A DNA stretch of 64,000 nucleotides from positions 1 to 64,000 of IMG/VR virus record IMGVR_UViG_3300042010_000129. One strand, given 5' to 3'. The notes under the pieces are model-generated. The model saw only the letters and a program-made list of their open reading frames with translations, was not told the origin of the DNA and ran no database searches. The stretch is from a virus (lineage: Duplodnaviria > Caudoviricetes). This document shows, in pieces, positions 32,829 to 33,338 of the stretch. The first letter of the stretch is position 1; the number at the start of each line of letters is the position of its first letter. Position numbers and translations under genes: made by a program.

Positions 32829-33338
32829 ATGCAACATCGCAGCATTACCGATGAAGACTTGCGCGACTTTCTGGAAGACGAAAATATCACCGACATTTCT
32901 TTCGTGGCGCAGGGCCAAGTCCCGTACCACAACGGTGTGCAGCTTTTCGAAAAAGAATACGTCGGTCAAGGCCCCGACGTAGATTCCGCAATTGAAGGCG
33001 CCATGGCTACGTTCAGTGCTGAATATCGCGGCGAACGTGTCTACACTCGCGGCGTTCAGTTGTCCTCTACTGACTCCGGCATTCTCGCTGTGTTCGTCGC
33101 GGCGATTCGTCCGGCTCCGAAAAACTTCAGCCAAATCCTCAACGATTTGAAGAAAGGCGCACAAGCTCGCCGCGCTGGCTGGAACGGTGCAGGCCAGTGT
33201 GTTTATCTGGAACGCTTCGCAGATTTCGGCGTGAATTTCGAACCGTGTTTCGTTCTGCACAACGCGCAGGGCAAATTGCAACCGGGTTGGCTTCCGTCCA
33301 TGGGCGATCTGATGGCCGACGACTGGGAAGTCCTGTAA
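32829..33338 (+). CDS. Protein with C-terminal DUF2829/Tad2-like domain
   Basis: NFSQILNDLKKGAQARRAGWNG ... GWLPSMGDLMADDWEVL. Confidence 0.8.
   Translation: MQHRSITDEDLRDFLEDENITDISFVAQGQVPYHNGVQLFEKEYVGQGPDVDSAIEGAMATFSAEYRGERVYTRGVQLSSTDSGILAVFVAAIRPAPKNFSQILNDLKKGAQARRAGWNGAGQCVYLERFADFGVNFEPCFVLHNAQGKLQPGWLPSMGDLMADDWEVL

Follow-up and report, generated by a model that had tools for sequence, protein, structure and literature searches.

The stretch of viral DNA analysed here (the window) comprises 64,000 nucleotides, positions 1 to 64,000 of the IMG/VR record IMGVR_UViG_3300042010_000129 (Caudoviricetes), and belongs to a jumbo phage related to the Pseudomonas phages HRDY3 and Lu11; HRDY3 shares 81% nucleotide identity with the window across 44% of an 8-kb query. 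The gene under study, P0001, encodes a protein of 169 amino acids (aa) in which a Tad2-like (DUF2829) domain, the domain of phage proteins that sequester signals of the Thoeris defence system, is preceded by an N-terminal domain of 97 residues. The gene, its two domains and the two motifs of its presumed ligand site are located as follows.

32829..33338, + strand: Tad2-fusion gene P0001, 169 aa, two domains, stop codon included (open reading frame and translation)
32829..33119, + strand: N-terminal domain, aa 1-97 (AlphaFold2, alignment, profile search, Foldseek)
33120..33335, + strand: C-terminal Tad2-like (DUF2829) domain, aa 98-169 (Pfam, PDB sequence matches, Foldseek)
33177..33188, + strand: GWNG motif, G117 W118 N119 G120, equivalent to W25/N26 of SPO1 Tad2 and W21/N22/G23 of HgmTad2 in HMMER alignments; invariant in 20 sequences
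33288..33308, + strand: W154-L-P-S157-M-G159-D160, equivalent to W73, S76, T78 (Gly here) and D79 of SPO1 Tad2

The open reading frame (ORF) at 32829-33338 (+) is genuine. Its ATG lies 6 bp 3' of the stop codon of the upstream gene, and its own stop overlaps the ATG of the following gene (TAATG). A search of 5.8 billion clustered proteins revealed 19 full-length homologues of 164-179 aa, and the start codon is supported by the invariance of M1 in all 19 of them. Orthologues were found at the same genomic position in HRDY3 (43% identity) and Lu11 (38%), both at 96% coverage and both labelled hypothetical; a literature search combining Lu11 with Tad2 returned no match. C-terminal residues described below as invariant are so in an alignment of 20 sequences of the P0001 family.

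The C-terminal 72 residues constitute a bona fide Tad2 (DUF2829) domain, the ligand-contact core of which is intact. The Pfam family PF11195 (Tad2-like) matches aa 99-169 over profile positions 2-73 of 73 (E 4e-20, 72.6 bits, cut-off 25), and PDB sequence searches retrieved Tad2 proteins only, namely SptTad2, HgmTad2/AcrIIA7, pdAcrIIA7, ModTad2 and SPO1 Tad2 (E 3e-16 to 7e-12 with the family profile), the best matches being HgmTad2/AcrIIA7 (8KBI-8KBM, 8WJC) and SptTad2 (8WJD) at E 3e-16 and 8e-16. The AlphaFold2 model of the full-length protein, calculated from a 20-sequence alignment, reached a mean predicted local distance difference test score (pLDDT) of 87.9, with values of 85-94 for aa 100-169. 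Foldseek comparison of the C-terminal half with the solved SPO1, Mod, Spt and Hgm Tad2 chains gave E values of 7e-6 to 1e-4 and template modelling (TM) scores by target of 0.6-0.83; for SPO1 Tad2 (gp34.65; PDB 8SME/8SMF/8SMG, 8WJE), the E value was 7e-6 and the TM score by target about 0.8. The modelled C-terminal half has the Tad2 fold, in which a small antiparallel β-sheet comes after an N-terminal helix. These data confirm the original prediction, made from the sequence alone, which had placed the C-terminus in DUF2829 based on the motifs GWNG, present at aa 117-120, and W.PS..D..A.DW, present at aa 154-166.

In SPO1 Tad2, glycocyclic ADP-ribose (gcADPR) is contacted by W25, N26, W73 and D79, with S76 coordinating water (10.1101/2023.05.01.538930), and in HgmTad2 by W21/N22/G23, W87, L88, S90 and D93 (10.1101/2023.11.15.567273); SPO1 W25/N26 and HgmTad2 W21/N22/G23 are the residues that contact the diphosphate and ribose (10.1101/2023.05.01.538930, 10.1101/2023.11.15.567273). 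These contacts align to W118, N119, G120, W154, L155, S157 and D160 of P0001, in which the HgmTad2 gcADPR site is thereby matched at every position. All are invariant, including the counterparts of the five core contacts of SPO1 Tad2 (W118, N119, W154, S157, D160), except for L155, which varies between Leu, Val and Ile. Also invariant across the family is G159, the counterpart of SPO1 T78 and HgmTad2 T92. On the adenine side, P0001 differs from both SPO1 Tad2 and HgmTad2 (relative to SPO1 Tad2, T78 to G159, H71 to Q151, D67 to Q147 and T65 to N145), and these positions form the invariant, family-specific motif NAQGxxQPGW.

The original prediction had further hinted at the binding of cyclic dinucleotides, as known for some Tad2 homologues. 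This was not borne out with respect to the known pocket, because the 41-aa insertion between β2 and β5 that provides the cGG/cGAMP site of HgmTad2 and SptTad2 (K46, S47, F70 and others) has no counterpart in P0001, where profile alignments leave about 8 residues. The dual specificity of HgmTad2 and SptTad2 is therefore not transferable to P0001. Ligand range differs even within the Tad2 family, with ModTad2 binding His-ADPR and Tad2_71 binding 3'cADPR and N7-cADPR (cyclic ADP-ribose species) and inhibiting type II Thoeris. Since the conserved core of P0001, with which ModTad2 aligns, occurs in homologues of differing specificity, the exact ligand of P0001 cannot be inferred from it.

Besides carrying the additional N-terminal domain of 97 residues, P0001 deviates from the stand-alone, 89-aa SPO1 Tad2 by a β2-β3 segment that is about 13 residues shorter. 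Its spacing between the two ligand-site tryptophans is 36 residues, the shortest among the proteins compared (41 in PaBG gp302, 48 in SPO1 Tad2 and 66 in HgmTad2). SPO1 Tad2 forms its V-shaped dimer through the α2 segment, which is reduced in P0001 and lacks conservation across its family. Family members carry a net charge of -5 to 0 in the C-terminal domain.

When modelled alone, the N-terminal domain gave a pLDDT of 87.1 and a predicted TM score (pTM) of 0.79. The AlphaFold2 model consists of a helix (aa 8-17) and a short strand (23-25), followed by a β-α-β-β unit (strand 42-48, helix 51-65, strands 71-81 and 84-92), with a linker of only about 4 residues leading to helix α1 of the Tad2 domain. 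The family alignment revealed the conserved motif QGQxPxHxGVQLFEKEYxG, invariance of E41, A54 and R74, and conservation of several polar and aromatic residues (K42, Y44, E69, Y72, R74 and R94). When the full-length protein was scanned against Pfam at E<=0.1, there was no family for this domain except a sub-threshold DUF2173 match, which was judged spurious (E 0.05, 14 bits against a cut-off of 26, aa 54-119 straddling the domain border), and neither a PHROG match nor a PDB sequence match was obtained; the description of this part as unrecognised in the original prediction thus holds. Searching the N-domain profile against 1.84 billion representatives returned six clusters of 169-179 aa, all carrying PF11195, as determined by scanning the four new representatives and, for the other two, already in the first homologue search. 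Judged from this search, the N-domain occurs only joined to Tad2, in Lu11/HRDY3-like jumbo phages. A 2485-aa protein that matched the profile in nine short stretches was discarded as a spurious repeat protein (BLASTP, 7/26 identities).

Among predicted viral structures, the N-domain matched the front half of gp163 of PaBG (Foldseek E 2e-5, TM 0.78), which is, like the phage of the window, a Pseudomonas jumbo phage. The uncharacterised gp163 (216 aa, phrog_1048; L008:1117-1767) has the same order of domains, in that its Tad2-like part comes after an N-domain whose predicted fold matches, and the full-length proteins align with an hhalign probability of 90%. Sequence similarity between the two N-domains is marginal (hhalign probability 30%, E 5e-4), and phrog_1048 matches P0001 only with profile positions 111-193, i.e., the Tad2 part, while the N-domain alone gives no match. 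The gp163 protein also differs from P0001 in a degenerate GWNG motif (TWEN) and in the location of its gene, which lies elsewhere in the genome, beside tRNA genes. PaBG additionally encodes a separate, canonical short Tad2 (gp302, 77 aa; L006:4067-4300), which suggests that the two-domain form is probably not redundant with a plain sponge. Assignment of the 216-aa structural match to gp303+gp302 was rejected, as this is the wrong locus and the match is gp163.

A weaker fold match was obtained with a 213-aa Dickeya phage protein, also among predicted viral structures. In BFVD, the N-domain fold was also matched by stand-alone proteins (about 80-100 aa) of the large myoviruses Citrobacter phage Merlin, Serratia phage Muldoon and Erwinia phages Y3 and pEa_SNUABM_5, with E values of 0.007-0.05 and TM scores of about 0.5-0.58. 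On the basis of the models, these proteins may be free-standing relatives of the domain.

Several identities of the N-domain were considered. A degenerate duplicate of Tad2 was rejected, with hhalign of the N- against the C-terminal profile giving 0.3% and no Tad2 chain in the Foldseek list. Acb4 (PF13876) and Sequestin (PF21825) were rejected at the sequence level, neither being matched in Pfam at E<=0.1. TadIV-1/Vs.3 of T4 is a helical dimer (PMC13243611) and thus unlike the N-domain. Dodecin (PF07311) has a similar topology, with Foldseek E values of about 0.2, TM scores of 0.38-0.5, VIA Z scores of 4.3-4.8 and ESM Atlas TM scores of 0.43-0.47, without a Pfam match. These values are at noise level, as are the matches to HK97-like capsid pieces (Z up to 5.7) and archease (TM 0.55), and none of the three was used.

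Additional N-terminal modules in front of, or fused to, a Tad2 core have been described. The head of pdAcrIIA7 (PDB 9KZR) is structurally characterised and leaves the tetramer intact while modulating activity (PMC13133391); it resembles the N-domain of P0001 in its placement, but comprises 48 aa in two helices as opposed to 97 aa of α/β fold, with no detectable relation in sequence or fold. Fusion of Tad2 to Acb4 or Sequestin results in dual inhibition, and Tad2 fusion partners are regarded as candidate anti-defence domains (PMC12265669). Acb4-Tad2 of Pasteurella phage Pm86 and Sequestin(PF21825)-Tad2 share with P0001 the combination of Tad2 and a second module in one polypeptide; the partner in P0001 is neither of the two, is α/β instead of helical, and in the profile search turned up neither by itself nor joined to another sponge family. 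In the Tad2 fusions P0021 (aa 1-205) and P0025 (aa 1-160), yet another N-terminal domain precedes Tad2 (phrog_11049/phrog_872, motif CHKVVRAGKI...GGYLV.YEDGY), and this domain additionally gives a match to phrog_37613 and a weak one to phrog_4159, both with the annotation MazG-like pyrophosphatase. Accordingly, several unrelated partners are recurrently fused to Tad2.

The two halves of P0001 were found to have diverged to different degrees. Relative to the homologue P0007, protein identity is 38% in the N-terminal and 89% in the C-terminal half; relative to P0004, it is 86% and 69%, respectively. Across the family, the identities of the two halves correlate weakly (r = 0.43), with rank reversals. 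At the nucleotide level, sliding-window identity on a MAFFT alignment of the window with the related sequences L010 and L011 revealed mosaicism within the gene, the Tad2 part of which contains the following patch.

33142..33321, + strand: mosaic patch of about 180 bp in the ligand-binding part of Tad2, with 86-88% nucleotide identity to L011 and 58-74% to L010

The N-domain has the opposite affinities, with 82-90% nucleotide identity to L010 and 44-57% to L011, and no other part of the locus diverges more from L011, the flanks being 67-90% identical. The regions flanking the gene are similar to both sequences. The opposite affinities of the N-domain and the Tad2 patch imply intragenic recombination, with at least two N-domain allele types on similar Tad2 halves. 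Within the family, N-domains vary in net charge between -10 and +3, with -9 in the window. The ratio of nonsynonymous to synonymous substitution rates (dN/dS), determined against the closest relative for which DNA was available as the least saturated comparison, was 0.19 for the N-domain and 0.18 for the C-domain; by this measure, the N-domain is under purifying selection. Taken from these comparisons, it appears to evolve much faster than the Tad2 half and to be swapped as a cassette.

The genes surrounding P0001 and the promoter-like motifs among them are listed below.

32662..32823, + strand: 53-aa single-pass membrane protein, 6 bp upstream of the Tad2 fusion
33338..33580, + strand: 80-aa Cys-rich protein (phrog_31156), its start overlapping the Tad2-fusion stop
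33592..34605, + strand: phage sigma factor (Pfam Sigma70_r2; phrog_17569, E 5e-137), downstream neighbour in all relatives
34598..34608, + strand: promoter-like motif AACTGTAAATA, upstream of a small ORF and the Tad3-like gene
34822..35448, + strand: Tad3-family gene, 208 aa (Pfam PF25185, E 4.7e-28, 97.8 bits against a cut-off of 27)
35449..35459, + strand: second copy of promoter-like motif AACTGTAAATA, adjoining the Tad3-like stop codon on its 3' side, upstream of the gene for the single-stranded DNA-binding protein (SSB)
38400..38618, + strand: 72-aa ORF directly 3' of recA, with a sub-threshold Acb2_Tad1_hairpin match (E 5.9e-4, 20.4 bits against a cut-off of 27)

Gene order is kept in HRDY3, Lu11 and five metagenomic contigs, proceeding from the small membrane protein (in most of them) to the Tad2 fusion, 0-3 small variable genes, the sigma factor, a small ORF, the optional Tad3-like gene, SSB, RecA and a further small ORF. 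HRDY3, Lu11 and one metagenomic contig also encode the membrane protein, which has a conserved C-terminal KPW(L/I)HQIT motif, directly upstream of their Tad2-fusion orthologue; it is missing in a 300-kb contig. The variable genes occupy the slot 3' of the Tad2 fusion, where the window has the gene for the Cys-rich protein. The motif AACTGTAAATA is present in 16 copies in the window against 0.66 expected, and its counterpart in Lu11 is annotated as a putative middle/late promoter. A scan for sigma-70-type promoters and terminators around the Tad2-fusion gene gave sites not above those in shuffled sequence.

The gene at 34822-35448, located 1.5 kb downstream of the Tad2 fusion between the sigma-factor and SSB genes, is by its profile match a member of the Tad3 family; the encoded protein also matches Tad3 in the PDB (9b7d_B) with an E value of 1.9e-5 over aa 3-169. 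Tad3 proteins are reported to bind ThsB directly and inhibit type I Thoeris (PMC13728456), and the gene product is, by family, a predicted ThsB inhibitor. The gene was found in the window and four metagenomic relatives and is absent from HRDY3, Lu11 and the sequence L005, from which it follows that it behaves as an accessory cassette. The same weak match is precomputed for orthologues of the 72-aa ORF after recA in two metagenomic relatives, and a third anti-signalling gene of the module is possible at this position. The idea of an anti-defence cluster, which the original prediction had based on small neighbouring genes, is thus supported by the Tad3-family gene and the weak Acb2/Tad1-hairpin ORF; the presence of the neighbours it had named (the YqeY-like protein, which belongs to phrog_1460, DUF1289, and the membrane and Cys-rich proteins) was confirmed, but none of them has a known role in anti-defence. 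The locus resembles a hotspot of N4-like phages, in which anti-signalling genes are interleaved with SSB and RecA genes (10.64898/2026.06.04.730250).

In the window, the gene of a 220-aa protein (29650-30312) has an orthologue in the metagenomic relative L010 (L010:1034-2725) that encodes 563 aa and carries an intein (PF14890); the window copy aligns to the parts before and after an insertion of about 1 kb.

We consider P0001 to be probably a two-module anti-defence protein of Lu11/HRDY3-like Pseudomonas jumbo phages, composed of a Tad2 sponge and an accessory N-terminal module. By analogy with the solved homologues, all of which are tetramers, the Tad2 domain would assemble as a homo-oligomer, and its inter-subunit pockets would sequester an ADP-ribose-derived signal of a TIR (Toll/interleukin-1 receptor) protein (3'cADPR, His-ADPR or N7-cADPR). 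With this signal sequestered, the Thoeris effector would never be switched on. The N-terminal 97 residues would be a folded, selected accessory module restricted to the Tad2-fusion architecture. Tentatively, we favour for this module a role in protein contact or shielding, directed at a variable host component or against recognition of the sponge by the host; a second small-molecule pocket and a scaffold for oligomerisation or stability each appear less likely than that.

Several observations weigh against this interpretation of P0001. With SPO1 T78 replaced by Gly and H71 and D67 by Gln, affinity for 3'cADPR itself is uncertain, and the family motifs were not found in the table of 84 tested sponges, within the searched part of the Hadary et al. 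tables. The phage promoter motif is missing immediately upstream of the Tad2 fusion, its nearest copy being at 26650. In every relative, the fusion gene occupies a fixed slot flanked by replication genes and the sigma-factor gene, a placement more reminiscent of a core gene than of a typical accessory anti-defence gene. Lastly, the faster evolution of the N-domain could be a sign of merely weaker constraint instead of an arms race.

In line with the extended specificity raised by the original prediction, the N-domain might itself bind another immune signal, for instance a nucleotide of CBASS or Pycsar, in a small-molecule pocket, by which one protein would block two systems, like the Acb4-Tad2 and Sequestin-Tad2 fusions. 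Fusions of Tad2 with a second sponge are published and recurrent and were the route by which Sequestin was discovered (PMC12265669), an Acb4-Sequestin fusion is also known (10.64898/2026.06.04.730250), the conserved residues K42, Y44, E69, Y72, R74 and R94 could line a pocket, and the small, ligand-binding dodecin fold is among the best, albeit weak, fold matches. Yet the dodecin-like matches are at noise level, the domain matches neither Acb4 nor Sequestin in Pfam and, unlike Sequestin, it occurs neither alone nor with another sponge family. Moreover, divergence within the locus peaks in this domain, and the domain's charge is variable and, in the window, strongly acidic, in contrast to the conserved, positively charged pockets of known sponges (PMC12265669). 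Fast, mosaic evolution and variable charge make a small-molecule pocket a poorer fit for the N-domain than a role in protein contact or as an accessory, and we regard such a dual sponge as unlikely. We are similarly sceptical of a head without a target of its own, aiding oligomerisation or solubility or masking a surface. This would agree with the short tryptophan spacing and the reduced, non-conserved α2 dimer segment of the P0001 Tad2 domain, with the short linker to helix α1, with weaker constraint as the cause of the faster N-domain evolution, and with the example of pdAcrIIA7, whose acidic N-terminal addition modulates activity with the tetramer unchanged (PMC13133391). On the other hand, Tad2 proteins that stand alone (77-89 aa) lack such a domain and are nevertheless functional or common, PaBG has a two-domain form alongside its canonical short Tad2, which suggests non-redundancy, and the invariant charged residues E41 and R74, together with allele swapping, exceed what a passive scaffold needs.

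That the DUF2829 domain has no anti-Thoeris function, and binds structured RNA or a metabolite derived from ADP-ribose or NAD in the replication/transcription programme of the phage, is in our estimation highly improbable. The proposal draws on AcrIIA7-type Tad2 homologues, which are reported to bind trans-activating CRISPR RNA (tracrRNA) in a positively charged groove of the tetramer (PMC13133391), and on the core-like position of the gene beside sigma factor, SSB and RecA in all relatives. The invariant residues, however, are exactly the small-molecule contacts of the solved Tad2 complexes, and the net charge of the C-terminal domain suits RNA binding poorly. Type II CRISPR-Cas systems with tracrRNA are not known to be typical of Pseudomonas, which also counts against RNA binding. 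An anti-signalling role is suggested by the Tad3-like and Acb2/Tad1-like genes of the module, and a similar SSB/RecA-associated hotspot in N4-like phages is of that kind (10.64898/2026.06.04.730250).

Returning to the reading of P0001 as a Tad2 sponge with an accessory module, a more far-reaching version is conceivable, though we have clear doubts about it: the N-domain would be an undescribed anti-defence module that makes P0001 bifunctional, with a second signal or a variable component of host immunity as its target while the Tad2 half takes up TIR signals, its two divergent allele types, reshuffled among nearly identical Tad2 halves, would record an arms race with the host partner, and the structurally similar stand-alone myovirus proteins of about 100 aa and PaBG gp163 would belong to the same new family.

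Fusions of Tad2 to other domains are already known (PMC12265669). What is new in P0001 is the particular partner domain, its restriction, as far as the profile search indicates, to Tad2 fusions in jumbo Pseudomonas phages, and its apparently cassette-like evolution. Tad2 sponges are among the most widespread phage counter-defences, and domains fused to them have already yielded the sponge family Sequestin. Lu11-like jumbo phages appear to embed up to three types of anti-signalling genes (Tad2 fusion, Tad3 and Acb2/Tad1-like) in a replication/transcription module, and their cultured representatives Lu11 and HRDY3 make the P0001 family directly testable. If the N-domain has a target of its own, it would represent a new way to extend or protect a sponge.

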